A stretch of 34,499 bases of DNA from a virus (IMGVR_UViG_648276647_000016:1-34499), one strand, 5' to 3'; positions 921-28,438 are shown, counted from the stretch's first letter. The notes: a model not told the origin generated them from the sequence alone. Program-made: numbers and translations.

Positions 921-935
921 TTACCTTTCAGGTGA
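921..935. promoter_or_regulatory. Operator-like palindrome TTACC-N5-GGTgA (one mismatch)
   Basis: TTACCTTTCAGGTGA; flanking sequence (cataaatacgaacagatattacc) resembles the -10/operator part of the PL-like promoter at 28395-28438. Confidence 0.4.
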
Positions 936-972
936 TTTGCAAAACGTACTGGATAGCAAACAAATTATTTGA

Positions 973-992
973 TACTGTATAAATATACAGTT
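973..992 (+). promoter_or_regulatory. LexA (SOS) box
   Basis: taCTGTATAAATATACAGtt: perfect CTGT-N8-ACAG palindrome with AT-rich centre, about 20 bp upstream of the ATG at 1012 and its GGAGAAG Shine-Dalgarno (999-1005). Confidence 0.8.
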
Positions 993-1011
993 ATTACATG
1001 GAGAAGATAAG

Positions 1012-1269
1012 ATGCAGCAGTATCACTATCCACTGGAAGACGGATTTACCGAAAGGATTCACACGCCGGGAGGCGTCAGGTCACTGGTGGAGGGATCGCA
1101 CTTGATGAAATTACTCCGGGATCTCGATAAGGATGGATTTAATGTCGATGGCCCACTTGCCGAACTGACTGCACTGATTAACTACGTCACCAGCTCGCAG
1201 ATGTCTATGCAGGATCTGCAAACACATCTCGACTATTGTGCCGAACAATTACTAAAACAAACCAGATAA
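1012..1269 (+). CDS. Small antirepressor-like protein (paralogue of the C-terminal domain of the Bro-N antirepressor), LexA-box controlled
   Basis: 85-aa ORF with good RBS. Aligns by eye to residues ~150-220 of the 1585-2280 product (IHTPGGVRSLVEGSHLMKLL..DGxxVxGxxAELT..QDLQTH vs IHSPSGVLGLTENSLLMNLL..DGHDVSGAAAELT..RDIQTH). Confidence 0.6.
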   Translation: MQQYHYPLEDGFTERIHTPGGVRSLVEGSHLMKLLRDLDKDGFNVDGPLAELTALINYVTSSQMSMQDLQTHLDYCAEQLLKQTR

Positions 1270-1272
1270 GGT

Positions 1273-1315
1273 TTGAAATTACCAAGTGGAGTGCTTATAT
1301 TTACCTTTGCGGTAA
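1273..1315 (+). promoter_or_regulatory. Sigma70-like promoter (TTGAAA-N17-TATATT) with operator palindrome TTACCTTTGCGGTAA (1301-1315) over the predicted start
   Basis: Read directly from sequence; operator matches the motif found in the immunity region. Confidence 0.5.
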
Positions 1316-1407
1316 ATTTACATCGCACTCCTCTTGTGCCATAGTAATCGGGCACTGGCAAAATCCAGTGCCGGGATTGGCGTCCCGGATTACTAAAAGG
1401 CGCATTC

Positions 1408-1427
1408 ACCGCGCAAGCGGTTTTTTT
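1408..1427 (+). terminator. Rho-independent terminator (ACCGC-GCAA-GCGGT + T7)
   Basis: 5-bp GC stem with GNRA loop followed by TTTTTTT, about 110 nt downstream of the promoter at 1273-1300. Confidence 0.55.
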
Positions 1428-1584
1428 ATGCGTATAGCACGGCCACATTCGTATTATGGTGGGCTGTGTGGGGGCACCGAAAGGTGCGCCGGGTCCTTTT
1501 AGCCGGTTACGCCAACCCTGCACAGTTCACCACCAACCGATTGGCGTCGGTAGTGGTGATTAACCAGACTAAAAGGTAACCACT

Positions 1585-2280
1585 ATGACAGCTACAAAAA
1601 GCACGTCCATTTTTTCTTTCGAATCCCAAGCCGATATACGAGTAATCGTCATTAATGGTGAGCCATGGTTTATCGCTTCAGATGTTTGTCGGGCTATAGG
1701 CATAGCAAACCATCGAGATGCTGTTCGAAAACTTGATGATGATGAGAAGGGCGTCGCTTCAACCGACACCCCTGGCGGTGAGCAAGAATCGATCATCATC
1801 TCCGAGTCAGGCCTCTACACACTGATCCTCCGCTGCCGCGATGCGGTGACACCAGGCACTATCCCCTACCGCTTTCGTAAATGGGTTACAGGTGAGGTTC
1901 TTCCTCAGATCCGCCGCACCGGAAGCTACATTAAAAACTCGCTCCCGCAGGAAGAACGCATAAAGATGGTTGCCGACCAGGTTGCCAACGCCACGGCGTC
2001 AGCAGTAATGCAGGCGATGAAGATAGAGAACAAAACCTACAGCGCCCCGCTGAAGCCAGGATACCGCAGTCTGATTCACTCGCCGTCTGGTGTTCTCGGC
2101 CTGACGGAGAACTCACTGCTGATGAATCTGCTGAACCAGTTACAGGACGACGGGCACGACGTATCGGGCGCGGCGGCGGAACTGACCACCATGTTCTGCT
2201 ACATTGTCGGTGTGAGCAAATGCCTGCGTGATATCCAGACGCACGCGGAGTACATCAACGACAAGGCAGGGTTCTTCTGA
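1585..2280 (+). CDS. Antirepressor, Bro-N domain family
   Basis: 231 aa; N-terminal region (EPWFIASDVCRAIGIAN ... ESGLYTLILRCR) matches my recollection of the Bro-N/antirepressor fold. RBS AAAAGG 8 bp upstream. Confidence 0.7.
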   Translation: MTATKSTSIFSFESQADIRVIVINGEPWFIASDVCRAIGIANHRDAVRKLDDDEKGVASTDTPGGEQESIIISESGLYTLILRCRDAVTPGTIPYRFRKWVTGEVLPQIRRTGSYIKNSLPQEERIKMVADQVANATASAVMQAMKIENKTYSAPLKPGYRSLIHSPSGVLGLTENSLLMNLLNQLQDDGHDVSGAAAELTTMFCYIVGVSKCLRDIQTHAEYINDKAGFF

Positions 2281-2295
2281 CGGGCGGCGGTGGCA

Positions 2296-2326
2296 TTCGT
2301 TAAAAACAAGGCCGCGAAAGCGGCCT
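2296..2326 (-). terminator. Rho-independent terminator for the minus-strand late operon (hairpin AGGCCGC-GAAA-GCGGCCT, then TGTTTTTAA on the minus strand)
   Basis: 7-bp GC stem at 2309-2326 followed by a U-rich tract on the minus strand, directly downstream of the lipoprotein gene; convergent with the antirepressor gene. Confidence 0.6.
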
Positions 2327-2341
2327 GTGACATGTCTCGAC

Positions 2342-2755
2342 TTATAAAGATGACTGATATTTTACAACTCTGTTCATGGCATCTTTTTTCACCGAGCTGA
2401 TATCAGTTCTTATTTTGGCTTCGTCATTACTGCTTATCATGCTATTAATTTTTTGCACTGACATGCCGTTTCTTTCAGCCATTGCACATACAGCAGCATC
2501 GTATGAAGAACTCGCTGCGATGGATATCACCTTGTTACACTCAAACACAGCACCTTCAGCAATATCAGATGCCGATGAGGCTGGCTTGGTATAAGTCTTG
2601 ACGTAGTGATCAATACAACTATCCTTCGCCGTCTTGGCAAGAGAAAAATCCATTTTAACTTTGTCGCAATATGCCTTATCAACACCGTCATAAACATCAT
2701 AGGATGTCGAGCAAGCGGATATCAAAAATACCGATAACAGCAATAATTCCTTCAT
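2342..2755 (-). CDS. Lipoprotein, AT-rich moron (candidate superinfection-exclusion protein)
   Basis: 137 aa; N-terminus MKELLLLSVFLISAC has a hydrophobic core and lipobox ending in Cys. Gene is visibly AT-richer than its neighbours. Confidence 0.6.
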   Translation of the reverse strand: MKELLLLSVFLISACSTSYDVYDGVDKAYCDKVKMDFSLAKTAKDSCIDHYVKTYTKPASSASDIAEGAVFECNKVISIAASSSYDAAVCAMAERNGMSVQKINSMISSNDEAKIRTDISSVKKDAMNRVVKYQSSL

Positions 2756-2764
2756 TGTTGTTCC

Positions 2765-5239
2765 TTATTGCGGAGTGACATCCTGAGGTCGCCACCAGTA
2801 TGTCTGGTTAAACTCTTTCTTTGAACGTTGCTCCATTTTACGCAAATAGCCTGGTGAAAAATACTCCTGCATCTGGTTAAAGATCATGTGATCGAGAGCC
2901 GCCTTCAAGTACCAGAGATTCGCACCAGGCATCAAACCTTTCCCCAGCTTAACCAGATCACCACCAGTCTGCTCATTCTTCCCTTCCACAGCATTTAACG
3001 GTATGCCCTGAGCAATCTTCACTACGTCATCAACCAGACCAACTACCGGGCCAAGCATCGACGCTAGTGCGCCGCTCCCGTACCTGGTGTGGTCAGAGAA
3101 AAGAAAATCACCGTACAACCCTGCCCCACCACCTTTTAAAAATGCATTTATCCAGAATTTAACCATGTTGTCACCGGTCATTTCTTTTGGATTTCTCCCA
3201 TTAATAAGATCAGTAATCTGCATGGAAAGAGCACCAAGCATGGTTGTGCTTGCTAAAAACGTTGCTATATATGCTGCACGCCCACCAGCAGACGGCATCC
3301 CCATAGCTCTATGCCAGTGACGCATAACTACCGAGATAGGGAACGATTTAAACAGGAAAACACTTCTCGTTAATTCACCTTTCCATGTTCCACGCTGAAT
3401 ACCAGAACCGGTTATCAGTTGCTCACGTGCTCCCGGTGTAATAACAGCCATATCAACTTCTTCAGTTACGGCACCGAGCAGTTTACGCATTGCCTCAAAT
3501 TTCACGCGTTCAGGCTCACCAAGATGTTTAACTGCTGAATCAGGGATACGCATAATGCTTTCCGGTGTCAGCATCGTATTATTACCGTTCCCCCAGTCCT
3601 CCTGTTGCGCCAGCTTCCATACGCTCCAGTCTGTGTCAGTAATCCCTTTGCTTTTCAGGATACGAAAATCAGAGTCATCGAGGCTACGAAGGTCTGGCGT
3701 CCGTGACACTACTTCTCCCAGGCTTCCCATCATGGTTACGCCATAGGCGCGCTTGTGCGCATCTGACCATGCTGTAAGCCCACTGGCACGCATTACGGCC
3801 GTTGCCGCCCAACGAGACACTGACGGCCCCATATTATCCATCGCCCAGCGGTTAACGCTGCCAAGTAGAGATTCCATCGCCAGACCAGCGCGGCGCGCCC
3901 GCACAAGTTCTGTACGGTTCGTTGGGTCCATAGCTTCAAGCTGGTTGCGGAATAACTGGTTCATTGGAAGGTTGGTAACCTTCGCCGACAGATACATGGT
4001 TCCAAGATCAGAGAACGATGACAGCAACGCGGATCCGAGTCTGCTGGCAACCAGCCAGTTGCGGATATTGTCAGACCATCGCGCGATGTGCGGATTCGCT
4101 ACAGGCTGTGTCTTTCCGGAAATAAAGTTGTACAGATTCTCTGTGTTGTTCGCCAGCCGCTCGACTTTACCGGTTTTACTCGGGTTAGCTGTTGCCGTTT
4201 CTGCCTTCACCTGATCAAGAAGAGAGCGGAAAACATGATCGGGGTTTGGGCCATATGTTTCCACCAGTGCAATATCTTTACTGATACCTTCCAGGTGACC
4301 GACCATGATTTCCCATAGAGAGCGATCGCCATAAAGTTGCTGATATTGCAGATAGGAATCTGCATCTTTGAAATGTATCTGTCGTGATGCATTACCACGG
4401 TTAGCACGTGCGCCGGAAATTCGCATTCCGGTATCAGTAAGCTTATTCAGCCCACCAGTAGCGATCGTGTTATAAGCCTCTCCAAGAAATGCAGACAACT
4501 CAGCATCGTTCATCAGTTGTCCATCGGCTCGGGTATAATATTTGCGATCCAGCTTACCTATAACATCGCTAACCCACTTATCCTTTGATACCGCCCCAAC
4601 CTTTTCCATAGAATGATGTTGAGGGATCCCCCAGTTTTCGAGATAGCCAATGTCCCCACCAGCATCATTAAACCGGCGGCGCAGTAGCTCTGTCACTTCT
4701 CTCCACGCCTTAGCACCTTTTCTTGCTTTAGCATTGCCAGTATTTTGCCCCCGCATTTCATATACCAGGTCACGTACGCCCGCTTCATCTTCAAACAGAC
4801 CAAAAAAGCGAGGATCAACTGCTTCGAATGCCCCCTGCAATTGACTCAATGCATAATCACGGGTGGCTTTTGTTCTGGATTCAACAGAGAGGAAATTCGA
4901 TTTACCGTCTGCATTAAAAGCAATAGTACGGTTAAGAGCACCGAGTTTCCCATCAGCCCCTTGATAGCTATTGATAAATTTATCCAATCTCTGACGTGCG
5001 GCTATAGTGAGGGCCACACGACGTTTATTTAATGCCGCTTCTCGCTGTAATTCTTCAGATGCCAATTGTGCTGCTCGATATAGCCGCTCTGATTCGGAAA
5101 GTTGTCGCCACGACATCGGGTCATCACGAGCAATGGAGCGCATATTTCGATAAATGCGGTCTTCAATGTTCTGTATTTCTCGCGCCGTTAACGTGCGCTG
5201 CGCCGCCTGCTGGACCGCTTGTATACATTCCTGTCTCAT
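2765..5239 (-). CDS. Internal virion / ejection protein, large (T7 gp16-like by position and size)
   Basis: 824-aa ORF, last large gene of the late operon after two other internal-protein genes; assignment is by synteny and size, not a recalled sequence match. Confidence 0.5.
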   Translation of the reverse strand: MRQECIQAVQQAAQRTLTAREIQNIEDRIYRNMRSIARDDPMSWRQLSESERLYRAAQLASEELQREAALNKRRVALTIAARQRLDKFINSYQGADGKLGALNRTIAFNADGKSNFLSVESRTKATRDYALSQLQGAFEAVDPRFFGLFEDEAGVRDLVYEMRGQNTGNAKARKGAKAWREVTELLRRRFNDAGGDIGYLENWGIPQHHSMEKVGAVSKDKWVSDVIGKLDRKYYTRADGQLMNDAELSAFLGEAYNTIATGGLNKLTDTGMRISGARANRGNASRQIHFKDADSYLQYQQLYGDRSLWEIMVGHLEGISKDIALVETYGPNPDHVFRSLLDQVKAETATANPSKTGKVERLANNTENLYNFISGKTQPVANPHIARWSDNIRNWLVASRLGSALLSSFSDLGTMYLSAKVTNLPMNQLFRNQLEAMDPTNRTELVRARRAGLAMESLLGSVNRWAMDNMGPSVSRWAATAVMRASGLTAWSDAHKRAYGVTMMGSLGEVVSRTPDLRSLDDSDFRILKSKGITDTDWSVWKLAQQEDWGNGNNTMLTPESIMRIPDSAVKHLGEPERVKFEAMRKLLGAVTEEVDMAVITPGAREQLITGSGIQRGTWKGELTRSVFLFKSFPISVVMRHWHRAMGMPSAGGRAAYIATFLASTTMLGALSMQITDLINGRNPKEMTGDNMVKFWINAFLKGGGAGLYGDFLFSDHTRYGSGALASMLGPVVGLVDDVVKIAQGIPLNAVEGKNEQTGGDLVKLGKGLMPGANLWYLKAALDHMIFNQMQEYFSPGYLRKMEQRSKKEFNQTYWWRPQDVTPQ

Positions 5240-5244
5240 TTAAT

Positions 5245-9557: not shown

Positions 9558-9569
9558 CTTATTATCCCC

Positions 9570-10109
9570 TTATCGACCGGTTGGAGTGCCAACAGCAGCA
9601 GAAATCGGCGCAGCCTTCTGAGAGAACGGGCTCCACGTTCCTCCGCCCATCTGGTATGCACCGTATGCTTTTAGTGGTGCCGTTAACAAAGTGCTGGTCA
9701 TCGATGATTTAGCAGCCGACTGAGCAGCAGCCCCCTGTGCCCGAGCATTCATTCCCTGAACCTGATACCCATATGCCTCACGCTGAGCGTTATTCACTGT
9801 CGTTAACGCATCAAGAGTGCCGAACTGAGCATTATCCGCAAAAACGTCAAGAGCTGTTCCGCTACTTAATTCCGCACCGGTAGCCCCCATAGTGGCCGCC
9901 GCAGTGCCTGAGCGTTGACGCATTTCACGACGACGCTGATCCGCTTCAATATTCCCACGATTGATTGAATCCTGTGCCTGAGCTTCAGCAATTTCAGCAT
10001 TCCGATCAGCTATGGCTGACTGGTATTTTGCCTGCTTGCTCTGGCTGTACATTGACGCGGCTGTGGATGCCACTGTGACGGCAACCAAAGCGATGGCTGG
10101 GTTACACAT
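9570..10109 (-). CDS. Putative internal virion protein (hydrophobic N-terminus, Ala/Gln-rich)
   Basis: 179-aa ORF; start overlaps the stop of the upstream gene; position between tail-tube and ejection genes. Confidence 0.4.
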   Translation of the reverse strand: MCNPAIALVAVTVASTAASMYSQSKQAKYQSAIADRNAEIAEAQAQDSINRGNIEADQRRREMRQRSGTAAATMGATGAELSSGTALDVFADNAQFGTLDALTTVNNAQREAYGYQVQGMNARAQGAAAQSAAKSSMTSTLLTAPLKAYGAYQMGGGTWSPFSQKAAPISAAVGTPTGR

Positions 10110-15850: not shown

Positions 15851-15858
15851 TTCCTCTC

Positions 15859-18541: not shown

Positions 18542-18555
18542 TTCAATGACTCCGG

Positions 18556-18762: not shown

Positions 18763-18830
18763 ATCAATGACTCCGTACGCAATTAAATTATTACCAATTT
18801 AACCACATATGATTTATTTGTCGTAGATAG

Positions 18831-18867
18831 TTGACATTTAACGCACAAATTATTACCTTTAGGGTAA
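18831..18867 (+). promoter_or_regulatory. Promoter-like element (TTGACA at 18831-18836) with operator palindrome TTACCTTTAGGGTAA (18853-18867)
   Basis: Resembles the PL-like promoter/operator at 28395-28438; oriented toward the tRNA module. Confidence 0.45.
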
Positions 18868-19189: not shown

Positions 19190-19266
19190 GTGGCATTAGC
19201 TCAGCTGGACAGAGCAACCGCCTTCTAAGCGGTTGGTCGCAGGTTCGAATCCTGCATGCCACGCCA
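19190..19266 (+). tRNA. tRNA-Arg (anticodon UCU)
   Basis: Hand-folded cloverleaf: acceptor GTGGCAT/ATGCCAC, D-stem GCTC/GAGC, anticodon stem ACCGC/GCGGT with loop CUUCUAA, T-arm GCAGG-TTCGAAT-CCTGC, discriminator G and encoded CCA. Confidence 0.85.
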
Positions 19267-19464
19267 GAATCACGCCTAAGGACCGTGATGCCAGAAGTTC
19301 CAGGGGCTTGGCGGTGATGGTTTCCCTTGAAGGACTATCACCGCCCTTTTTACAGCAGGACGCCATTGCGATGACTTCATGCTGTAAACCAGTACAGCCA
19401 CGGAAGGCATAACTCATTGCTTCCAGTTCGCCCGGTTCGCCGGGCATTTTTTTAAGGTGAGATT

Positions 19465-19821
19465 ATGAACGACCAGCAAATCGAAAAAGAAATCGTTGAG
19501 AAAGGCAAAACGGCACCGCGAGTTACGCCCCAATATATCGAAAGCATCATTCTTGAAGAGCATTTCTTTACTGCTTATGACGGTATTCGTGCCGCCAATA
19601 TGGGCGTTGGCGCTGCGTGGACAGCGCATAAATCTACAGACCTCCTTACTTTCTGCGTACTGGTGCTGAAGAATGGCTTCACCGTCACCGGAGAGAGCGC
19701 CTGTGCAAGTCCGGAAAATTTTGATGCAGAAATTGGTCGGAAGATTGCCCGGCAGAATGCTGTAAACAAAATCTGGATGCTCGAAGGTTACTTGCTGAAG
19801 CAGAAGCTAAGCGAGCAATAA
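19465..19821 (+). CDS. Conserved small phage protein (possibly N4 Gp49 / Sf6 Gp66-like)
   Basis: 118-aa ORF downstream of the tRNA; family assignment is a tentative recollection. Confidence 0.45.
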   Translation: MNDQQIEKEIVEKGKTAPRVTPQYIESIILEEHFFTAYDGIRAANMGVGAAWTAHKSTDLLTFCVLVLKNGFTVTGESACASPENFDAEIGRKIARQNAVNKIWMLEGYLLKQKLSEQ

Positions 19822-19825
19822 CACC

Positions 19826-19837
19826 GTGACATGTCAC
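19826..19837. repeat. Palindrome GTGACATGTCAC (copy 1, flanks cCGTGACATGTCACAa)
   Basis: Exact 12-bp palindrome between the Gp49-like gene stop and the terminator. Confidence 0.6.
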
Positions 19838-19842
19838 AAACA

Positions 19843-19870
19843 GCCAGCCGATGAGCTGGCTTTGTTTTAT
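19843..19870 (+). terminator. Rho-independent terminator (AGCCAGC-CGATGA-GCTGGCT + TTTGTTTTAT)
   Basis: Perfect 7-bp stem followed by a T-rich tract; sits between the convergent plus-strand module and the terminase large-subunit gene. Confidence 0.6.
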
Positions 19871-19911
19871 CCTCACCAGAGGATATCAGCAGCATTATCC
19901 CCTCCAGCGGA

Positions 19912-21387
19912 TTAAGCATAGGGATCGTAATCAGTGATGGCCTTGCCTTGCTGGTTCTGCTGCCCGGGAATTCGCAGGCGCTTCGACACAGGGAACGCAA
20001 ACGTCAGCAGTAGCGCATCGCCTTTACCCGGCGAACGCCCAAGCCGCTCCTTGATATCTTCCTTCGGTTCGATAACGATTTTACCGTCCACTCGAACTTT
20101 GTACTCTGCCGCCGACAGGTCGTCCGCTGTTTCCTGGTCATCCAGCATCCCGCCGAGCCTCAGCCATATCTTGCATGCATTGAACATCTCCCCACGCTTG
20201 TTGAGCATCTGAGGGTCAGTAGACGCGCCACCGAACGGAACAAGTTGCCATGTACGACCCCACCCGTCACCGATTGACTTCAGACCAGTTCCGTAACCGA
20301 AGTCGATGAACACTGCGTCAGCCTGGTACTGGTCTTCAAAGTCAGCGATACGCTTCGCCATAATCAGATCGTCAGTGGTCTTGTTGCCAGTCCACAGCAC
20401 CTTACTGTGCAGACCCTGCCGCAGGTATATCACAGCGTCATCAACGCCGGAGTATGCCGGGTCAACGCCGATTATCACCGGAGCATGTGCAACCTGCGCA
20501 GCGGTTACCACCCGTTTCATTGCCTCGTCAGTAAGGCCGGTAGGGATAAACTGCAATTCAGATGCATCCGGGAATATGCCGCGCACACGGATTTTAACGA
20601 AATCGCTGTCTTCCCCGTAGTCATCAACCCATTTCTGCAACTGCTGTTTGTTAGTGCCTTCCACCGTCCGGCTGTCAATCTGCGCAGTTTTCCAGCGGTG
20701 TTTATATTTGCGGAAACATTCGCGGAAACGCCCGGTGTTACGTGTCGGGTTTCCGAACGCCACCCAGATAATCTCAGTGTCTTCGTCCGTAAGCGCGCCC
20801 TCAGCAACTTCCCACACCAGATCCGCAATGTTCGACGCTTCATCGAATACCACGATGATGCGTTTGCGCTCGTTGTGTAGTCCGGCGAATGCCTCAGTAT
20901 TGTGCTCAGACCAGGGGATTGCGTCAGCTCGCCACCGCTTGTCGTGCCCAGGATCATTGCTGTACATCGCGGTAGCGGTACAGGTAAACCAGTCTTTCGT
21001 GATAGCAAGGTTCGACCACTTGATAATTTCCGGCCAGGTCTTCGTTCGTAGCTGGTTGTCGGTGTTGGCGGTCACCACGACCTTACAATCCTCGCAAGTG
21101 GACATGCCCCAGTTGATCAGCATTGAGATGAATGCGGATTTACCAATACCGTGACCAGAAGCGCGTGCCAGCATAAGCGGCTGATAGCGCGTCTCTGGAT
21201 TCTGCAGGTGATCACGTATCTCTCTGAACGCATCAGCCTGCCACTGACGTGGACCGGTGGCATGTGCTAATTCAGTCCCCTCTTCCCCCCACGGGAACGC
21301 ATAGAGGGCATAGCCAAGCGGATCGTGAGTGAACCCTGCAATATCCTCGATCAACTGCTCTTCAGGAGATAACGCTGTATCTGTCAC
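19912..21387 (-). CDS. Terminase large subunit
   Basis: 491 aa with an N-terminal ATPase-like region (GHGIGKSAF Walker-A-like) and C-terminal nuclease-like region; 4-nt overlap with the upstream small-subunit gene. Confidence 0.75.
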   Translation of the reverse strand: MTDTALSPEEQLIEDIAGFTHDPLGYALYAFPWGEEGTELAHATGPRQWQADAFREIRDHLQNPETRYQPLMLARASGHGIGKSAFISMLINWGMSTCEDCKVVVTANTDNQLRTKTWPEIIKWSNLAITKDWFTCTATAMYSNDPGHDKRWRADAIPWSEHNTEAFAGLHNERKRIIVVFDEASNIADLVWEVAEGALTDEDTEIIWVAFGNPTRNTGRFRECFRKYKHRWKTAQIDSRTVEGTNKQQLQKWVDDYGEDSDFVKIRVRGIFPDASELQFIPTGLTDEAMKRVVTAAQVAHAPVIIGVDPAYSGVDDAVIYLRQGLHSKVLWTGNKTTDDLIMAKRIADFEDQYQADAVFIDFGYGTGLKSIGDGWGRTWQLVPFGGASTDPQMLNKRGEMFNACKIWLRLGGMLDDQETADDLSAAEYKVRVDGKIVIEPKEDIKERLGRSPGKGDALLLTFAFPVSKRLRIPGQQNQQGKAITDYDPYA

Positions 21388-21980
21388 TGATTACCATCCT
21401 GACGTTCTTTGAGTCGCTTCCTGGCTGCTGCTATGCGATCAGCAATTGTCACATTCACATTAACATCCAGACGTTCTTTGAACGCGTTGACATCAACATG
21501 CTTACCAATCAGCTCAAGATTCTTCACCTTGTCAGGCCATTTAATTTTTTTGAGGATTGTCTCTATCGAATCCTCGTTCATGTTCATGATGGTCGATGAC
21601 AGATCAAAGCCGCTAAGCGTAGTGCGCCAGATTTTCGGCCACTCGCGGATTGGCTTAAGGCTCCCATCGTCGTTGAGGATATCAATCACGTCCATCTGGT
21701 CGATCTCCACCAGGCGCATGAGAACGTAATCAGCACTGACACGCATTCGTTTGTTGCGCTCTTCCATCAGCTCGGCAATCCGTTTTTGAATGCGTTCATC
21801 GCGCATCATGACACTGGCTTTAACTGCCGCTGTATTTGGGGAGAATCCTGCGTTAATCGCTGCCTGAGTCTGGTTTTCAGGCGTTTTGATGTATGACTGG
21901 CAATAAGCCTCCTGCATTGCTGTTAGTGGCTTAAATTGCGTTGATTTGCGTTTATAGGTTTTAGGTTCAGCAGGCATCAT
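21384..21980 (-). CDS. Terminase small subunit
   Basis: Position immediately upstream of the large subunit with overlap. Start placed at the ATG at 21978-21980; the track start at 22058 is a TTG preceding a low-complexity Thr/Val stretch. Confidence 0.55.
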   Translation of the reverse strand: MMPAEPKTYKRKSTQFKPLTAMQEAYCQSYIKTPENQTQAAINAGFSPNTAAVKASVMMRDERIQKRIAELMEERNKRMRVSADYVLMRLVEIDQMDVIDILNDDGSLKPIREWPKIWRTTLSGFDLSSTIMNMNEDSIETILKKIKWPDKVKNLELIGKHVDVNAFKERLDVNVNVTIADRIAAARKRLKERQDGNQ

Positions 21981-22054
21981 AACCACCGTGGTAATAGTTA
22001 CCGTTGTGGTAATAGTACCATGCAAAATAAAGCCGCCATAGTTGGCGGCAGTAT

Positions 22055-22288
22055 TCAAAGTCCATCAAATTCATCGTAAAAACTCTCGTCAAGATACCCT
22101 TCCCATTTACCGCGAATGAAAATTACATCCTCGCCGCAAGGGTGCTGACTGTCGATAACTATATCCCTCCTGGCGCAACCATACTTATGCATGAGAAATT
22201 TAACCTCTTTCGGAAAATTTGCTGAGTTATCTCTCATATCTTCAAGGTCGTAGCGTATTTTTGGCATAACACCTTCGTGACATGTCAC
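22055..22288 (-). CDS. Hypothetical protein
   Basis: 77-aa ORF; its ATG lies inside the palindrome GTGACATGTCAC (22277-22288). Confidence 0.4.
   Translation of the reverse strand: MTCHEGVMPKIRYDLEDMRDNSANFPKEVKFLMHKYGCARRDIVIDSQHPCGEDVIFIRGKWEGYLDESFYDEFDGL
22277..22288. repeat. Palindrome GTGACATGTCAC (copy 2, flanks tCGTGACATGTCACAc)
   Basis: Exact copy overlapping the start codon of the 22055-22288 gene. Confidence 0.6.
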
Positions 22289-22626
22289 ACTATTAATTTC
22301 GTTTCATGCCAGCCTTTGGTCACCCAGCATTGCGAGTCACCATTACACGGGCATGAATTCACAGGAACTCTCTCGCCGCACTTACCGCAACGTTTTCTGC
22401 TGATCGATTTTATACGCCCGTGCACGCGTGCATCATCCTGGCGGATCAGTAACGCTATATACTCACCAAATTCGTAAGGCGCACGCCCGGGGCGACGCGT
22501 GGCACAGTTACGCTCCAGCATTTCAATTTCCTGAGCATCAAGCACAATCTCCAGCTTACGTACACCGGATTCAGCTTGTCTGGCTCTCTGAGCGGCTTTG
22601 CGCTCTGCTGCTGATTTAGCCATCAA
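22285..22626 (-). CDS. Hypothetical zinc-ribbon protein (C-x2-C-x9-C-x-C)
   Basis: 113-aa ORF with basic N-terminus and CGKCGERVPVNSCPC motif; possible regulator (speculative). Confidence 0.4.
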   Translation of the reverse strand: MMAKSAAERKAAQRARQAESGVRKLEIVLDAQEIEMLERNCATRRPGRAPYEFGEYIALLIRQDDARVHGRIKSISRKRCGKCGERVPVNSCPCNGDSQCWVTKGWHETKLIV

Positions 22627-22858
22627 TATTCACCTTTATCGCGAACACCTTTACCGGTTTATCACCGAAGTGCGGATGTGTGATTGTCTTGATTTCATAT
22701 CCGTCATACGGAACATCAATTCTGCGACTGAAATCGTCGCGCTTCGGATATCCCTTTGTGATAATCAGGCGGCCATTATGAGACGACAATAACTCAGTCC
22801 GCCTAGCGCCGATTATTCTGGCCGGTTTTGTAACCTGAGTGTCATTTACATGATCCAA
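22616..22858 (-). CDS. Hypothetical protein, possibly a 5'-truncated remnant at the IS21-family junction
   Basis: 80-aa ORF whose start lies within about 12 bp of the IstA start, so its N-terminal codons probably fall in the IS left end. Confidence 0.3.
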   Translation of the reverse strand: MDHVNDTQVTKPARIIGARRTELLSSHNGRLIITKGYPKRDDFSRRIDVPYDGYEIKTITHPHFGDKPVKVFAIKVNIDG

Positions 22859-22869
22859 CAGGAAATGGC

Positions 22870-24369
22870 GTGACGCTCAATACTTCTCAGGTCAGTTACT
22901 ATATGACTCAGCGTAAGAAAGGTATAACTCAGCATATCTCGGCCATGAAGGCTGGTATCTCAGTCCGTTCTGGTCGTCGGATCGAAAAAGGAGAGTGGGC
23001 AAAAAACAGTGTTCGGCACTGGCGCACACGCAAAGATCCTCTGGAAGCTGTGTGGGACAGCATGCTTGTTCCTCTGTTGAAAGAGAGGCCGGCTCTGACA
23101 CCAACAACTCTGCTGGAGATGCTACAGGATAAATATCCCGGCCAGTATCCCAACAGCCTTCGAAGAACAATGCAACGGCGAGTTCGCGAATGGAAGCTAC
23201 AGTATGGTGCAGAGCAGGAGGTCATGTTCCGCCAGCGACATCAGCCCGGTCTGCGAGGTCTGTCGGACTTTACTGAACTGAAAGGTGTAGTTGTCACCAT
23301 CGCCGGTAAGTTGTTGGCGCATAAGTTGTATCACTTCCGTCTGGAATGGAGCCACTGGAGCTGGATGCGGGTTGTGCTGGGTGGTGAGAGCTTCTCTGCT
23401 CTGGCTGAAGGTCTGCAGGAAGCCCTCGGACAACTGGGCGGAGTGCCGGTAGAACATAAAACGGACAGCCTGAGGGCAGCATGGAAACAACAGGGCGAAG
23501 ATGGACGCCGCGAGCTGACTGAGCGTTATGCTGCTCTCTGTCAGCACTACGGAATGCAGGGCGTACACAATAATGCTGGTCGGGGCCACGAAAATGGCTC
23601 GGTTGAAAGTGCCCACGGACATCTGAAAAGGCGTATCTGTCAGGCGTTGATACTGCGGGGCAGTAACGACTTCAGCACCATAGAAGAATATCAGGCCTTC
23701 ATCACTCAGCAGGTTATGCGGCACAACCGTAACAATCAGGATCTGGTCAAGGAAGAACGTCTTCATCTGAAACCGCTGCCGCTTCGTCGCAGTGCTGACT
23801 ATGATGAGCTGACTGTGAGGGTTAGCCGCAGCAGTACCATCAATGTGAAGCACGTCGTCTACAGCGTACCTTCCCGGCTTGTAGGTCAACTGTTACGGGT
23901 CCGGTTATGGGACGATCGTCTGAGCTGTTATGTTGGCAGCAGCGAGGTCATGAGCTGCCCTCGTGTCAGACCAGAAAAAGGGAAGACGCGGGCCCGTCGT
24001 ATCGACTTCCGACATGTGATCGACAGTCTGGCAAAAAAGCCCGGTGCGTTCTGCCATGCAACGCTGAGAAATGACATCCTGCCAGACGATGAATGGCGGA
24101 GACTGTGGCGTCGCTTATGTAATCATCTGGAACCCGACATGGCAGGAAGGCTGATGGTACATGCCCTGAAACTGGCTGCAGGATACGACGATATCTCAGT
24201 CGTGGCAAAAGGTATGGAGCAGATGCTGAATACCCCGGGAAACGTGGATCTGCACCGGCTGATGCGCTTCCTGGGTATAAAGGAAAAGGCGTTGCCGGTA
24301 GTCAATGTGAAACAGCATAACCTGAGCAGTTATGAGCAACTACTGCGTGGCAAGGGAGGTTCGCAGTGA
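22870..24369 (+). CDS. istA: IS21-family transposase IstA
   Basis: 499 aa with N-terminal HTH-like region and central DDE-type domain; GTG start with AGGAAA Shine-Dalgarno (alternative ATG at 22903); stop overlaps the istB start. Confidence 0.7.
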   Translation: MTLNTSQVSYYMTQRKKGITQHISAMKAGISVRSGRRIEKGEWAKNSVRHWRTRKDPLEAVWDSMLVPLLKERPALTPTTLLEMLQDKYPGQYPNSLRRTMQRRVREWKLQYGAEQEVMFRQRHQPGLRGLSDFTELKGVVVTIAGKLLAHKLYHFRLEWSHWSWMRVVLGGESFSALAEGLQEALGQLGGVPVEHKTDSLRAAWKQQGEDGRRELTERYAALCQHYGMQGVHNNAGRGHENGSVESAHGHLKRRICQALILRGSNDFSTIEEYQAFITQQVMRHNRNNQDLVKEERLHLKPLPLRRSADYDELTVRVSRSSTINVKHVVYSVPSRLVGQLLRVRLWDDRLSCYVGSSEVMSCPRVRPEKGKTRARRIDFRHVIDSLAKKPGAFCHATLRNDILPDDEWRRLWRRLCNHLEPDMAGRLMVHALKLAAGYDDISVVAKGMEQMLNTPGNVDLHRLMRFLGIKEKALPVVNVKQHNLSSYEQLLRGKGGSQ

Positions 24370-24689
24370 GCAATATCCATCACCTTGAACGCAGCCTGCG
24401 TAAACTACGCCTGACACGAGTTGGAGCTGAATGGCACGCTCTGGAAAAACGAGCGCTGGCAGAAGGCTGGACACCATCGCGCTATCTTCTGACGCTATGC
24501 AATGAAGAACTCCTGTGGCGCGAGAGTGAAAAACTGCGTCGTTATAAAAAGGAGGCCCGGTTGCCAGTTGCCAAAACGCTAAGCGAATACGACTTCAGTC
24601 AGGTGCCGGAACTGAATGGAGCTCAGTTCCGGCAACTCTGTGAAACGACAGACTGGGTTGATGCTGGAGAAAACGTTCTGCTGTTCGGG
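24366..24689 (+). pseudogene. istB: IS21-family helper ATPase IstB, N-terminal fragment
   Basis: MSNIHHLERSLRKLRL...DWVDAGENVLLFG matches the IstB N-terminus up to the Walker A position, where the expected GPSGVGKTH is replaced by unrelated sequence. Confidence 0.65.
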
Positions 24690-24847
24690 GCCAGCGCATT
24701 AGCACGCACCAGTTGCACTTCCAGTTGCGTTGCCAAATCGCTGATCAGCTTTGCCACACTGCGCATATCAACGGCACCACATTCAGCTTTCAGTTCCGAA
24801 GCCATCTCATGCCCGGCGGCAACTAACCCTTTGATATTACTTTCCAT
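24690..24847 (-). pseudogene. N-terminal fragment (~52 codons) of a phage early-right gene, truncated at the IS21-family junction
   Basis: MESNIKGLVAAGHEMASELKAECGAVDMRSVAKLISDLATQLEVQLVRANA reads as protein-like; beyond ~24690 the frame is antisense to istB. Confidence 0.4.
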
Positions 24848-24908
24848 CTTTACCCTCGCTTATCCACATAACTTATTGATTACATTGATAACTAAAAAGA
24901 TCGTCGAT

Positions 24909-25253
24909 TCAGAACTCTTCGATATTCCAGCCACCATCTGCTTTCTTTGGTTTAACCGTTACCCCGATAATTCGGAACGGATACTGATCTGCGGCGACTT
25001 TGGTTTTCACCCTAGCGTCGTCGGTCCAGAAACCTTTCACTTCGTGCAGTTCCATCTCTCCTGTGGCGAGCATCACAGCGAAATCTGGCGTATAGAACGT
25101 GTTGTCAGCTAACCGCAGCTTGATACCCTCGAATCGATACCAGGCTATTTCCCCTGCGCGTTTACGCTGCTCAAGGTGCTGGCAATACGCAGATTCTGTT
25201 TTGTTCATCTGGCCTGTTTTGAGTCGACCAAGAGCCTGTATCTGTTTTCTCAT
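24909..25253 (-). CDS. DUF1064-like phage protein (putative PD-(D/E)XK-fold)
   Basis: 114 aa; pattern YRFEGIKLRLA...YTPDF...ELHEVKG recalled from DUF1064 proteins of lambdoid replication regions. Confidence 0.5.
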   Translation of the reverse strand: MRKQIQALGRLKTGQMNKTESAYCQHLEQRKRAGEIAWYRFEGIKLRLADNTFYTPDFAVMLATGEMELHEVKGFWTDDARVKTKVAADQYPFRIIGVTVKPKKADGGWNIEEF

Positions 25254-25256
25254 GAT

Positions 25257-25332
25257 TTACCCCTTAGGTAATTAAAAACCACATAAGACATGAAATCAAT
25301 AGATATTAGAACATTTTATTACCTATAAGGTA
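25257..25332 (-). promoter_or_regulatory. Promoter flanked by two operator palindromes (TTACCCCTTAGGTAA 25257-25271; TTACCTATAAGGTAA 25318-25332)
   Basis: Minus-strand reading (tctaatatctattgatttcatgtcttatgtggtttttaattacc) parallels the PL-like region (ctcatatctattgacatcaaaccaaatacgcataattattacc). Confidence 0.5.
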
Positions 25333-25370
25333 ATTATATAGGCGTAAAAAAATGCGCTATCGCGCTGGTA

Positions 25371-26156
25371 TTACTTGATAAATCCTGCCGCCTTTCCCCG
25401 CCTGTATTCCTCCATCAGCCACTGCGCCGGTGTTATTCCCCCCAGGGTGGCTGCGTTAGGCATGCACCCGAAACTTCGCCCTAGTGGATGGTAAACGTCT
25501 CTCCCTGTGTCCGGAGGTGTACTCATGGGTTCTGGCTTTGCCTGTATGCTGATCACTGGATCGGGTATCTGCTGTCCGGAAGCCACCTTTTTCGCCCAAT
25601 CATCGAGCAGCCTGCGCGCGTGTTTCTCAACCTCAATCTCGCTAAGCTGGCGCTGATACATTGCACGGCGGGTATCACATACGACCCAGTACATAACCGG
25701 ATGCCGCCACGGGAATCTTTCGGGACCGCCAGGATATAAACTTTTTTCCTTGCTGTACCGGTGAAACTCCGCCATCACATCGTCAATGGTGACACCAAGA
25801 ACCATCTTGCTGTCTTTGCACCACTTGATAAATTGCCCAGGCGACGGCCAGAACGGAGATTCACTGGCGCGGGCGTGGCGCATACCAGCAGAAACCTGTT
25901 CACGGGTTCGGATCCCACCTTCGGCAAACGCAGCAATCCACTGCTGTTTTGCAGCGACTTCCTGCTCTGGCGTCTTCAGGTTGGTTACCACTGCCGCCGG
26001 AAACAGTTGTTTCAGCTGTTTGAAAAGGGCATCAACAAGCCTCTCTGCTGACATGTTCACCACATTGTCATTGTTGACGTACTGATGCTCATAACCTGAC
26101 ATGCGAGAAAGGGCTTCTCCGTCACGGTTTTGTATCGCGGTAAAAACGTTGTTCAC
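25371..26156 (-). CDS. Replication protein P-like (DnaB helicase loader)
   Basis: GGIRTREQVSAGMRHARASESPFWPSPGQFIKWCKD matches my recollection of lambda P (NGITTMEQVNAGMRVARRQNRPFLPSPGQFVAWCRE). Start placed at the GTG at 26154-26156 after a GGAGGA Shine-Dalgarno, giving a GTGA overlap with the O stop. Confidence 0.75.
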   Translation of the reverse strand: MNNVFTAIQNRDGEALSRMSGYEHQYVNNDNVVNMSAERLVDALFKQLKQLFPAAVVTNLKTPEQEVAAKQQWIAAFAEGGIRTREQVSAGMRHARASESPFWPSPGQFIKWCKDSKMVLGVTIDDVMAEFHRYSKEKSLYPGGPERFPWRHPVMYWVVCDTRRAMYQRQLSEIEVEKHARRLLDDWAKKVASGQQIPDPVISIQAKPEPMSTPPDTGRDVYHPLGRSFGCMPNAATLGGITPAQWLMEEYRRGKAAGFIK

Positions 26157-26968
26157 AAGAAATCCTCCCACGCTTCAGGGCTGTTCCAGTGCGGAACGTT
26201 GTTATCAGGTAATGTTGATTGCTTCTGTCTGCTAATCTGCAGCCGCCTTGCCAGCTTCTGCTCCCACTGTGCCTGATGGTATGCCTTACCCTCAGCCATC
26301 CAGTAAATTCTGAATTCTGCAAGTTCCTGTGCCGTTGGCAGACTGTCCAGGTAGATTCCCTGCAATGAGCTTTTCCGAAGAAAGTCATCTGATGGTTGCC
26401 ATTGTTCATGCATGACAAATTTGCCTAATTGCCCTAGCCCACCAGGAGGAACAAAGTTATTCATCACGGCGTTGTTTGCGCCGGGGTCATGAGGCACAGA
26501 ATCCCCGGTTTTTGTCCTGCTCTCCCTCTCTTGGTTAAATGACTGGTTATATGACTGGTTCTGGATCCCGTTTTTGGGATCATTCAACATCCCGTTTTTG
26601 GGATCATTCAACATCCCGTTTTTGGGTATATTCCCGTTTTCGGGAACATTACCGTTTTCGGGTTTATTACACCCTTCTAGGTTGCCTTTAATGTTCCCTT
26701 TTTTGGTTATATTAAGAGAGAAAACCCGCACTCTTTTCGTCGCTCCCTTTCTCTCTCCGGTATCTGAAATAAGCCCCATTTTCATGAGCGATATAAGCCC
26801 GGCCTGTACGGTTTTTTTATTCAGGCAAGTGTCTTTAACGAGGCGTTCTATGCTGGGGTAGCAGAGGTTATATTCATCGGCTCTGTCAGCCATCGAGAGC
26901 AGTATGAGCTTTAATGATGAGCTACCTGGATCTGTCTCCCAGGCCCAATCTGTTGCATGTCTGCTCAT
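26153..26968 (-). CDS. Replication initiator O-like protein (N-terminal winged-helix, central repeat region holding the origin)
   Basis: 271 aa; strong RBS (GGAGATT); internal peptide repeats NDPKNGML are encoded by the DNA iterons; immediately upstream of P. Confidence 0.65.
   Translation of the reverse strand: MSRHATDWAWETDPGSSSLKLILLSMADRADEYNLCYPSIERLVKDTCLNKKTVQAGLISLMKMGLISDTGERKGATKRVRVFSLNITKKGNIKGNLEGCNKPENGNVPENGNIPKNGMLNDPKNGMLNDPKNGIQNQSYNQSFNQERESRTKTGDSVPHDPGANNAVMNNFVPPGGLGQLGKFVMHEQWQPSDDFLRKSSLQGIYLDSLPTAQELAEFRIYWMAEGKAYHQAQWEQKLARRLQISRQKQSTLPDNNVPHWNSPEAWEDFL
26564..26668. repeat. Origin iterons: two perfect 24-bp direct repeats (ATCCCGTTTTTGGGATCATTCAAC) plus three degenerate copies, each containing TCCCG-N-CGGGA-type dyad symmetry
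   Basis: Directly visible tandem repeats inside the O-like gene, followed by an AT-rich stretch (26669-26720), as in lambda ori. Confidence 0.7.
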
Positions 26969-26983
26969 GATTAATCTCCGCTA

Positions 26984-27250
26984 TCAGCTTGAGTGTTGTG
27001 GGGAGGAATTAATCATGATCTGCTTAATCTCTGCCCTGATGCGACGGTTTGATTCCATGGTGCACTCAACACAGTGTCCGTTGTAAACCCAGCGTTCACT
27101 GTCATGTCCGTGCTTACATGGTTTTCCGGTGTAGTAGCGTTTAAGTCCGCGCTTTGCGGCATCAATACGTGTAATGATTTCCATGGTAAGCCCTGTTATT
27201 AGTATTGGGATTACGGTTATTTTGTGCTGACACAAAAAAAGATCAACCAT
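26984..27250 (-). CDS. Hypothetical zinc-finger protein (early-right operon)
   Basis: C-x4-H ... C-x2-C motif (KPCKHGH...HCVEC); true start may be the internal ATG at 27182-27184. Confidence 0.4.
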   Translation of the reverse strand: MVDLFLCQHKITVIPILITGLTMEIITRIDAAKRGLKRYYTGKPCKHGHDSERWVYNGHCVECTMESNRRIRAEIKQIMINSSPQHSS

Positions 27251-27283
27251 ATTTGGTTTTTCATTACCTTTGAGGTACGAATA

Positions 27284-27312
27284 GATATGAAAAGACCGCC
27301 GGGTGGCGGTCT
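27284..27312 (-). terminator. Rho-independent terminator downstream of the cro-like gene (AGACCGCC-ACCC-GGCGGUCU + UUUUCAU)
   Basis: Perfect 8-bp GC stem at 27293-27312 followed on the minus strand by a U-tract; tR1-like position. Confidence 0.55.
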
Positions 27313-27333
27313 ACAGAGGATTGTGGCTGGATA

Positions 27334-27564
27334 TCATGAGTAGAAGAAGTATGCCAGTTCTGCTTTTGAGCGCAGCCATTGTCTTGTTTTACAGGCTTTA
27401 AAAAGCCCATTCATCAATACCTTACCTGGCATTTTGCGCTTACCTGTTAAGTGAGTCTGGATATAGTGACTCGTCGTTCCGGCTTCCTGTGCGAAGGCTT
27501 CACGCTCATCCGGAGTAAGTGCAAGCCAGTGCTTTTTGAAATCGAAATGTCCGTTATCGCTCAT
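27334..27564 (-). CDS. Cro-like HTH regulator (YdaS/Cro-type)
   Basis: 76 aa with an HTH-like segment (EAFAQEAGTTSHYIQTHLTGKRKMP); divergent from the repressor gene. Confidence 0.6.
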   Translation of the reverse strand: MSDNGHFDFKKHWLALTPDEREAFAQEAGTTSHYIQTHLTGKRKMPGKVLMNGLFKACKTRQWLRSKAELAYFFYS

Positions 27565-27600
27565 AGCTATTGCCTGATATTTATTTCAGATAATAAATAT

Positions 27601-27663
27601 TCACCCATAAGGTAACAAAAATCAAGGATAGTTACCTATGGGGTGCATTTACCTGTTGGGTAA
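27601..27663. promoter_or_regulatory. OR-like operator cluster: TCACCCATAAGGTAA (27601-27615), TTACCTATGGGGTGC (27632-27646), TTACCTGTTGGGTAA (27649-27663)
   Basis: Three copies of the TTACC-N5-GGTAA palindrome in the 154-bp divergent intergenic region between the cro-like and repressor genes. Confidence 0.6.
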
Positions 27664-27718
27664 TATTGCTTTAAATTGAATCACCTACTGATTCATATAT
27701 GAGGCGATTTTCCAGAAA

Positions 27719-28303
27719 ATGAAAAGTATCCAGGACGTCCGCAGGCAAAATCTCAACGACTTGATCGACCGTGAATTCAATGGTGTTCAGACGCGGATGG
27801 CAGAAAAACTTGGAACTCAGGCAAATCTGGTAAACCGCTGGGCTCTTGGCAAGAAGGTTATCGGCGACCAGGTTGCTCGAAAAATTGAAGCTGCCGCCAA
27901 TAAACCCCGTAACTGGCTTGATATCGATCGCTCGCTTTCTCATGAAGGTTTTCAGCCTGTCGGCCCAAGCGACATTGGTCAGCTGGCGGCTCACAACCTG
28001 GAACGCTGGATGAGCGAAAGCCGCGACCTTTCAACGCAGGGAAAACTTCACCGCGCATCCGGCGTCGCCCAGGTGACAATCAGCCGCCTGTTAAACAATG
28101 AGGTCAGCGTTTCCATTTCCACCCTGGAGAATGTTGCATCCGCATTCGGGCGTCACGGATATGAACTACTGATTCACCCGCACGACCCTGCGACTATCAA
28201 CTATGACCGCTCGCGCTACGCATTGTTACCCGAAACCGAGAAAGCAAAGATTGAAAGTTACATTGAATTTGTCATCAACCAGAACGAAAAAAGCAAACAA
28301 TAA
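27719..28303 (+). CDS. Prophage immunity repressor, tandem HTH domains, no S24 peptidase domain
   Basis: 194 aa with two XRE-like HTH segments (QTRMAEKLGTQANLVNRW and LHRASGVAQVTISRLLN); no Ala-Gly/Ser-Lys autocleavage module; divergent from cro and followed by a terminator. Confidence 0.65.
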   Translation: MKSIQDVRRQNLNDLIDREFNGVQTRMAEKLGTQANLVNRWALGKKVIGDQVARKIEAAANKPRNWLDIDRSLSHEGFQPVGPSDIGQLAAHNLERWMSESRDLSTQGKLHRASGVAQVTISRLLNNEVSVSISTLENVASAFGRHGYELLIHPHDPATINYDRSRYALLPETEKAKIESYIEFVINQNEKSKQ

Positions 28304-28322
28304 AACTATAGTTTTCAGCAAG

Positions 28323-28350
28323 TAAGCCGCCTCATGGCGGCTTTTTTATT
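28323..28350 (+). terminator. Rho-independent terminator (AAGCCGCC-TCAT-GGCGGCTT + TTTTTATT)
   Basis: Perfect 8-bp stem plus T-tract 20 bp after the repressor stop. Confidence 0.7.
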
Positions 28351-28360
28351 GCCCATGCTA

Positions 28361-28438
28361 TTACCTAATGGGTAATTTTTTTAACTCATATCTATTGACA
28401 TCAAACCAAATACGCATAATTATTACCTCAACGGTAAC
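28361..28438 (+). promoter_or_regulatory. PL-like promoter (TTGACA 28395-28400, -10 near 28417-28423) bracketed by operators TTACCTAATGGGTAA (28361-28375) and TTACCTCAACGGTAA (28424-28438)
   Basis: Consensus -35 hexamer, AT-rich -10, and the downstream operator lies over the predicted transcription start. Confidence 0.6.

Follow-up and report, generated by a model that had tools for sequence, protein, structure and literature searches.

The closest described systems to the one considered here are the lytic switches of phages SPC32H and epsilon15. In SPC32H, LexA reportedly controls the antirepressor Ant, and Ant is said to remove the non-cleavable repressor Rep from DNA. According to a secondary account, Rep is a tetramer on palindromic DNA, and Ant breaks this tetramer (PMC9638917). 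The epsilon15 record (AY150271.2 / NC_004775.2) contains seven "protein_bind: repressor" (lysogeny) features, each of which lies on a match to the palindrome TTACC-N5-GGTAA. They are found at terS (the small-terminase gene), at gp3, at gp19 (Ant)/tail fibre, three in the left operator region (OL) 3' of the repressor gene, and one 3' of the replication genes (upstream of RuvC). We have analyzed this palindrome in a viral sequence of 34,499 nt, IMGVR_UViG_648276647_000016. The whole stretch will be called the window, and positions are counted from its first letter. It is a defective phiV10/epsilon15-like prophage of the genus Uetakevirus, and its palindromes are very probably the operators of the immunity repressor Rep (27719-28303), which would keep nearly every transcription unit shut until antirepression takes place. 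The palindrome finding is sound but largely known already: the existence of dispersed repressor sites in epsilon15-like phages is on record. A fixed 62-bp promoter-operator cassette, the presence of an operator on accessory modules and a second palindrome may be new.

The window shares with epsilon15 the same 15-17 bp palindrome (ATTACC-N5-GGTAAT), the same syntenic loci, the genus and the gene order, and its sites are found at the loci annotated as repressor-binding in that phage. There are also differences. The two Rep proteins are only 43% identical, and OL has three operators in epsilon15 but only two in the window. The seven sites annotated in the epsilon15 record do not include the right operator region (OR) or the second site of the cassette, and this phage has neither the tRNA nor the isrK/C4/Bro-N module with its operator which are found in the window. 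SPC32H (PDB 5D50, 5D4Z) has full-length homologues of Rep and Ant, a LexA box at ant, and the identical operator motif at the same positions. On the other hand, its Rep is ~43% identical to that of the window, and it lacks the second, Bro-N-type antirepressor module. All features of the SPC32H/epsilon15 type which can be looked for in a sequence are present. In phiV10 (14 sites), SPC32H (18 matches) and the Klebsiella phage BUCT711 (13 matches), the motif recurs at the corresponding syntenic positions. Full-text literature searches for the operator sequence gave nothing relevant. The early region of the window is 96-98% identical to phiV10-like E. coli phages. An 8-kb query from the prophage hits 1131 of the 5426 complete genomes of E. 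coli, a species in which this prophage family is very common.

The operators and the regions which contain them are the following:

921-935: operator with one mismatch (TTACCTTTCAGGTGA), in the divergent region between ant (+ strand) and the tail-fibre gene (- strand)
1273-1301, + strand: promoter-like TTGAAA-17-TATATT, fused to an exact operator at 1301-1315
18853-18867: exact operator, with the late head operon (gp3-portal, - strand) on one side and tRNA-Arg (+ strand) on the other
21980-22012: adjacent operator pair, 18 bp centre to centre, between a terminator (22032-22049) and the terS start codon
25257-25333, - strand: promoter-operator cassette for the DUF1064 gene (RuvC in epsilon15)
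27264-27278: operator with one mismatch, post-cro, directly 3' of the cro terminator (27293-27312)
27601-27663: three-part OR, with a layout shared by five genomes
28361-28437, + strand: cassette of OL and the left promoter (PL), 3' of the rep terminator (28324-28343)

Eight exact copies of TTACC-N5-GGTAA are present in the window, against 0.02 expected from dinucleotide-preserving shuffles of the window. When up to one mismatch is allowed there are 12 copies against 0.59 expected, a number reached in none of 100 shuffles. In an assumption-free count of all inverted 5-mer repeats, with 0-15 bp between both arms, TTACC with a 5-bp spacer comes first, with 8 copies; the runner-up has 3. Non-coding DNA is only 9% of the window and contains all 13 operator sites (P ~4e-9, even when the sites are collapsed to 8 independent loci). 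The sites are symmetric palindromes, with the extended consensus (A/T)TTACC(T)-N3-(A)GGTAA(T/A), and the core formed by A3 C4 C5 and G11 G12 T13 is invariant in 26 of 26 half-sites.

The initial annotation of this sequence had described a repeated palindrome located in intergenic DNA, and had proposed a motif scan against a shuffled background. Both the repetition and the location are confirmed by these figures, with a frequency far above that due to composition. Its list of coordinates is largely correct, apart from two sites displaced by one base: those given as 25318-25332 and 28424-28438 correspond to 25319-25333 and 28423-28437. A third site, 27632-27646 (TTACCTATGGGGTGC), had been listed among exact or single-mismatch copies and carries two mismatches. 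It is still credible, because it is the sole non-coding one among the 21 two-mismatch sites in the window, and because epsilon15, SPC32H and BUCT711 have a perfect middle operator in its place. A further adjacent pair, 21980-21994 and 21998-22012, lies directly 5' of the small-terminase start. This pair had been overlooked, as had the link to late operons and the general pattern in which a terminator is followed by an operator.

Operators flank rep in the classic OR/OL layout. The rep gene adjoins the three-part OR, with a cro-like gene in divergent orientation. The cro-proximal operator (27601-27615) fills the spacer of the right promoter (PR; TTGTTA-17-TATTAT, - strand), while the degenerate middle operator (27632-27646) and the exact one at 27649-27663 lie beside the weak rep promoter region. 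The spacing of these three sites, 17 + 30/31 bp, is found in 5/5 lineages.

The PL cassette contains a distal operator (28361-28375), a -35 TTGACA (28395-28400), a -10 AATTAT (28418-28423) and a proximal operator (28423-28437). The corresponding elements of the DUF1064 cassette are a distal operator (25319-25333), a -35 TTGATT (25294-25299), a -10 TTTAAT (25271-25276) and a proximal operator (25257-25271). The order is the same in both: terminator, distal operator, ~20 bp, -35, 17 bp, -10, proximal operator. The last T of each -10 is also the first T of the proximal operator. The distance between both operators, measured between their centres, is 62 bp in the DUF1064/RuvC cassette of 5/5 genomes and in the PL cassette of four genomes, with 63 bp in the PL cassette of BUCT711. 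The geometry of the sites points to repression.

The proteins and the control element of the switch are the following:

27719-28303, + strand: rep, coding for the 194-aa immunity repressor, homologue of SPC32H Rep (PDB 5D50 chain A, E = 5e-42)
27334-27564, - strand: gene for a Cro-like 76-aa helix-turn-helix (HTH) protein (PHROG 35 "transcriptional repressor", 6e-13)
1012-1269, + strand: ant, coding for an 85-aa antirepressor, homologue of SPC32H Ant (PDB 5D50 chain E, E = 4e-46)
973-992, + strand: LexA box TACTGTATAAATATACAGT within the ant promoter (TTGATA-17-TATTAC, read by eye)

The alignment of Rep with 5D50 chain A spans residues 1-190. A Pfam scan of Rep detected HTH domains only and no S24 peptidase. 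Judging from this architecture, with an N-terminal HTH and a C-terminal HTH-like domain for oligomerisation and Ant binding, Rep is a repressor of the SPC32H/epsilon15 type, which has two HTH domains and no self-cleavage domain. The LexA box is perfect (CTGT-N8-ACAG at 975-990, 22 bp 5' of the ant ATG) and is kept in SPC32H and BUCT711. Since the window contains homologues of both Rep and Ant, together with a LexA box at ant, the lytic switch appears to be of the SPC32H type. A LexA box in this position would imply SOS induction through antirepression, not through repressor cleavage, and the 85-aa, LexA-controlled Ant would be the real antirepressor of the lytic switch. Tetramerisation of Rep and the action of Ant in this prophage are assumed by homology. 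In the phiV10-like phage ZX5, whose Rep has 99% identity with that of the window, overexpression of Rep abolished free phage and lowered holin and endolysin transcripts by >99.9%; no operators were mapped in that study (PMC9782041).

The identity of Rep to the window protein across lineages is 43-78%, and only 43-45% in the Salmonella and Klebsiella lineages. The sequence NLVNRW in its first HTH, the putative recognition helix, is invariant in 5/5 lineages. When IMG/VR was searched for repressors in which the recognition helix differs, every Rep locus obtained was 99% identical, and these loci were used for a polymorphism test. As a distant comparison we have taken Pseudomonas phage PseuP_224, whose cI protein shares 39% identity with Rep in the N-terminal domain. 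Five TTACC-N4-GGTAA sites flank this gene in an OR-like and an OL-like cluster (2422-2474 and 3297-3336 of the PseuP_224 sequence); they are among 7 matches with up to two mismatches, against 0.87 expected. Since this relative carries the same half-site as the prophage, with a spacing one base shorter, the half-site seems to travel with the DNA-binding domain. The shorter spacing fits a different pairing of DNA-binding domains. The C-terminal part of the PseuP_224 cI protein looks S24-like when its sequence is read by eye.

The Cro-like protein might also be considered as the main reader of the dispersed sites, lowering early and accessory units during lytic growth, with Rep acting at OR and OL only. 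It is an HTH protein more conserved than Rep (58-84% identity to the window protein across the genus, against 43-78%), which matches the invariance of the operator, and Cro and CI share operators in lambdoid switches. The Cro-like protein probably reads the same sites as Rep, and the sequence alone cannot separate both proteins as readers. However, the dispersed sites have the same sequence as those in OR and OL, and they were annotated as repressor sites by the epsilon15 authors. The putative recognition helix of Rep is invariant as well, and the same half-site accompanies a relative of the Rep N-terminal domain in PseuP_224. Moreover, a lysogen requires silencing while Cro is absent. We consider that a leading role of the Cro-like protein is unlikely, and that Rep is the reader to which the dispersed operators should be attributed.

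For the selection test, up to 80 IMG/VR relatives were aligned for each region, giving 24-63 distinct alleles, except for OR, with only 13. One part of the data covers OR, OL, the DUF1064 pair (63 alleles) and the post-cro site. Variable columns are 8/110 (7%) in half-sites, 31/55 (56%) in the 5-bp spacers and 219/905 (24%) in other non-coding DNA. Half-sites differ from other non-coding columns with P = 1.6e-5, and from spacers with P = 1e-11. The ant and gp3 sites, tested alone, show the same pattern (P = 0.03). The dispersed copies are maintained and not accidental, because half-site columns vary less than other columns.

These data also bear on the idea that only OR and OL are functional, the other copies being weak decoys, reservoirs or leftovers without regulatory output. 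Several copies are indeed far from a recognisable core promoter (~-67 to -79), or lie between a terminator and a start codon. Nevertheless, the positions are kept across otherwise diverged genomes, the half-sites at DUF1064, post-cro, ant and gp3 are conserved while spacers and flanks vary, and three dispersed sites abut a -10 hexamer exactly as the PL operator does. Such an absence of function is quite unlikely, and the attribution of a regulatory role to the dispersed Rep operators is preferred. We may also note that the central 5 bp of the operators (for example, 25262-25266 and 28366-28370) vary more than the surrounding non-coding DNA.

It is extremely unlikely that the motif is not a repressor site at all but a promoter element, a packaging/recombination signal or a restriction-modification/methylase target: there is a pair at terS, a frequent location of pac sites, the phage encodes methyltransferases and the bipartite motif recalls Type I recognition sites, but the sites flank rep as a three-part OR plus OL, they are never found in coding DNA, the orthologous epsilon15 sites were annotated as repressor-binding by the depositors, and a packaging signal would not recur at 8 loci. 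Several specific candidates have been rejected: a Type I restriction or methylase target, a pac site, a LexA site (of three CTGT-N8-ACAG matches, only that of ant is a good LexA box by its promoter), and an integration host factor (IHF) site (epsilon15 annotates IHF sites separately).

Control by Rep would thus operate as follows. In the lysogen, Rep bound to its operators would keep nearly every transcription unit shut. At PR, the operator in the promoter spacer would allow Rep to occlude the promoter. At PL, at the DUF1064 promoter and at the isrK/C4/Bro-N promoter, the operator extends from the last base of the -10 over the transcription start, and Rep would act by occlusion as well. The 62-bp distance corresponds to ~six helical turns, which would place both sites of a pair on the same face, so that one Rep tetramer may hold both of them across the promoter. 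Operators placed after terminators (post-cro, after the replication genes and before terS) might either gate the promoter of the next unit or block read-through. Single operators would act in the divergent regions at the head and tail-fibre operons and, outside the window, at the lysis operon. DNA damage would remove LexA from the ant promoter, Ant would take Rep off the DNA, and all units would open together. The predicted transcription starts, near 28430 (+), 27583 (-), 25264 (-), 1308 (+) and 18866 (+), would be silent in the lysogen and active once it is induced. The evidence for this scheme consists of enrichment, position, synteny, selection and protein homology, from which we infer binding, repression at each site, bridging by tetramers and roadblocking.

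Several points weigh against this interpretation. Binding and repression by Rep in this phage are read from sequence. The epsilon15 sites are known to us as record annotations, which may include predicted as well as experimentally tested sites. The prophage is defective, so present-day function in its host is not guaranteed. The operators of the head, tail-fibre and lysis operons have their centres ~-67 to -79 from the putative start, too far for simple occlusion. A sigma-70 consensus scan, which recovered PR, PL and the isrK-side promoters, detected no such promoter at terS, next to the 921 site or on the late-gene side (- strand) of 18853; late promoters were read by eye from cross-genome alignments. 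The middle OR site of the window is degenerate. Finally, a 62-bp loop is tight, and bridging by a single tetramer is a conjecture. In any case, the claim of the initial annotation that one repressor controls dispersed loci stands in its core, given the OR/OL layout, the epsilon15 annotation and the conserved sites under purifying selection. The assignment of targets has to be revised, as the following cases illustrate.

The 18853 site had been described as an operator for a tRNA-bearing insert. The tRNA in question is:

19190-19266, + strand: tRNA-Arg(TCT), antisense to the late genes, 323 bp from the operator

This is no unusual insert: the tRNA of phiV10, SPC32H and BUCT711 has the same location and is also antisense. 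The operator is the conserved site 5' of the head operon (gp3-portal), and it is kept in epsilon15 (2931-2947, annotated as repressor-binding), which has no tRNA. Part of the claim may still hold. On the strand opposite to the late genes and directed towards the tRNA, TTGACA (18831-18836) and TACCTT (18854-18859) are separated by 17 bp. The first of these, the -35 hexamer, shows no variation in 57 alleles and is shared by all five lineages. The 18853 operator may therefore serve a tRNA-ward promoter, and control of the tRNA depends on this putative opposite-strand promoter (TTGACA-17-TACCTT), which overlaps the operator. The tRNA-Arg(TCT) of phiV10 (2853-2929) is unannotated in its record and overlaps the annotated CDS PhiV10p04. 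Another observation in this region is a ~45-bp block 5' of gp3 (CTACGACAAATAAATCATATGTGGTTAAATTGGTAATAATTTAA; 18763-18830 in the window and 3290-3356 in phiV10), which is nearly identical in five otherwise diverged genomes.

The orthologue of the terS pair in epsilon15 is at 12-27 and is annotated as repressor-binding. The likely start of terS is the ATG at 21980 or 21977 (- strand). The longest terS open reading frame (ORF) in the window (region 21975-22058) and the terS annotation of phiV10 (41-119) begin upstream of both operators and of the stretch which follows the terminator; terS begins just 3' of the operators in epsilon15 and SPC32H. The relatives have two more single operators, one 5' of the lysis genes and the other near int; both positions are outside the window.

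The operator at 921-935 has orthologues in phiV10 (20877), epsilon15 (19896, annotated as repressor-binding), SPC32H (20013) and BUCT711 (16965), and its half-sites are nearly invariant in 57 alleles. It lies ~40 bp 5' of the LexA box and equally faces the tail-fibre promoter. For this reason, control of ant by Rep is not established. The initial annotation had placed operators at both antirepressor genes; this is better supported for the second one, since the 1301 operator abuts the promoter of a module located after ant:

1352-1427, + strand: isrK-like small RNA with its own terminator at 1408-1421 (Rfam RF01394, 77.9 bits)
1452-1537, + strand: C4-type antisense RNA (Rfam RF01695, 77.7 bits)
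1585-2280, + strand: Bro-N / Ant-type antirepressor-like gene, 231 aa (Pfam Bro-N, 2e-21; PHROG 130 "anti-repressor Ant", 2e-62)

Both antirepressor genes differ in kind: one codes for the 85-aa switch protein Ant and the other for a 231-aa Bro-N protein. The putative promoter of the module is TTGAAA-17-TATATT, with the operator adjoining its -10: the last T of TATATT is the first T of the operator at 1301-1315. This fusion (1273-1315) has the geometry of PL and of the DUF1064 promoter. It is also found in BUCT711, where it precedes a different accessory gene in the same place after ant, a DUF2335 moron. There is no partner operator 62 bp upstream of 1301 (1239-1253 is no site). The pair formed by isrK and C4 is also present, unannotated, at 20278-20463 of phiV10. 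In the same phage, the post-ant operator is at the centre of a ~41-bp near-perfect inverted repeat (~20479-20529; GGAGTGCTTATATTTACC...GGTAAATATAAGCACTCC), whose right arm has diverged in the window. Overexpression of ZX5 ORF4, annotated as a Bro-family anti-repressor, lowered the prophage titre 1000-fold (PMC9782041). We have assumed that ORF4 is the orthologue of the Bro-N gene of the window.

More distant systems share some of these features. Lambda also has three operators between divergent repressor and cro genes, operators over PR and PL, and a terminator after cro. Unlike lambda, Rep of the window has no S24 self-cleavage domain and induction would require an antirepressor, operators are also found outside the immunity region, and paired operators lie 62 bp apart around a single promoter.

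In P1, C1 operators are reportedly scattered over the genome, and one of them is said to be at the c4-icd-ant (immI) operon. The likeness is that one repressor would gate many units, one of which combines a C4 antisense RNA with an antirepressor gene: in the window, the C4-family RNA is 5' of the antirepressor gene on the same strand, as in immI. However, C1 is unrelated to Rep and binds as a monomer to asymmetric 17-mers, and the prophage of P1 is a plasmid. The resemblance to P1 is one of functional analogy, not of family membership.

The stoperators bound by gp71 in mycobacteriophage L5 are said to be asymmetric, orientation-dependent and located within transcribed regions. Both phages have many sites beyond the immunity region, and some of those in the window (after terminators and before terS) could block an elongating polymerase. 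On the other hand, sites in the window are symmetric, and only the terS and post-cro sites resemble roadblocks. An L5-like arrangement was rejected, as the symmetric sites mostly overlap or flank promoters. In Gifsy-1, the isrK promoter drives the antirepressor gene of the isrK-orf45-anrP unit by read-through (Hershko-Shalev et al. 2016, PMC4825925). The window has the same succession of an isrK small RNA with its own terminator and an antirepressor-like gene. It differs from Gifsy-1 in having an operator of the resident Rep at the promoter, and a C4-family RNA between isrK and the Bro-N gene.

A second palindrome, AACCATATATGGTT, is found at 881-894 (tail fibre), 18801-18814 (gp3) and 27245-27258 (post-cro, adjoining the operator at 27264-27278), with weaker copies at 1260-1273 and 25277-25285 and a perfect copy 5' of the lysis genes of phiV10 (24736-24749). 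The distance from its copies to Rep operators is 5-38 bp. In the promoters of the head, tail-fibre and lysis operons it precedes a -10-like TAATAA, TAATAG or TATAAT by exactly 7 bp. This palindrome is kept in phiV10, SPC32H, epsilon15 and BUCT711, and may be a candidate box for a late activator. Possible binders are the phrog_536 regulator (22285-22626) and the PerC-like and AlpA-like proteins. As a DnaA box it was rejected: only two copies resemble one.

A tentative extension of these results, which we regard as possible but doubtful, is that Uetakeviruses use a genus-wide promoter code with two layers, a modular Rep cassette and the AACCATATATGGTT palindrome, which would mark late promoters for an activator. 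The first layer may be the 62-bp operator cassette, with its proximal operator fused to the -10, matching a Rep tetramer with two DNA-binding heads. This cassette may recur at early units, or have been copied onto them. The fused -10/operator half alone may front the modules found after ant: isrK/C4/Bro-N in the window and the DUF2335 moron in Klebsiella. The putative tRNA-ward promoter is different, as the operator would cover its whole -10. If such a code is correct, the invariant operator and helix predict cross-immunity among members from Escherichia, Salmonella, Klebsiella and Enterobacter, with repressors which are only 43% identical.

The sites described here form a near-complete, testable map of repressor targets for a very common E. 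coli prophage family. This map predicts that a single antirepression event would open early, replication and packaging genes, the tRNA and the second antirepressor module together. Other prophages of the same host cell are possible targets of this second antirepressor. As a compact and portable module of repression, the 62-bp promoter-operator cassette might be of use in engineering.

A few observations concern the state of the prophage, which is probably defective through a truncated tail fibre and an insertion sequence (IS) element. What remains of the tail-fibre gene is an ORF (367-816, - strand) for 146 N-terminal residues, where the whole protein would have 700-1000 aa. Bases 1-380 may belong to a mobile element, since they have thousands of matches in the chromosomes and plasmids of E. 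coli. The IS element is the following:

~22772-24696, on the strand opposite to the early-right operon: partial IS21-family ISEc10 (499-aa istA and truncated istB)

It occupies the position of Eae/Ead-type genes in relatives such as phiV10. A 248-aa ORF (24366-25112) extends from ISEc10 into DNA antisense to DUF1064.

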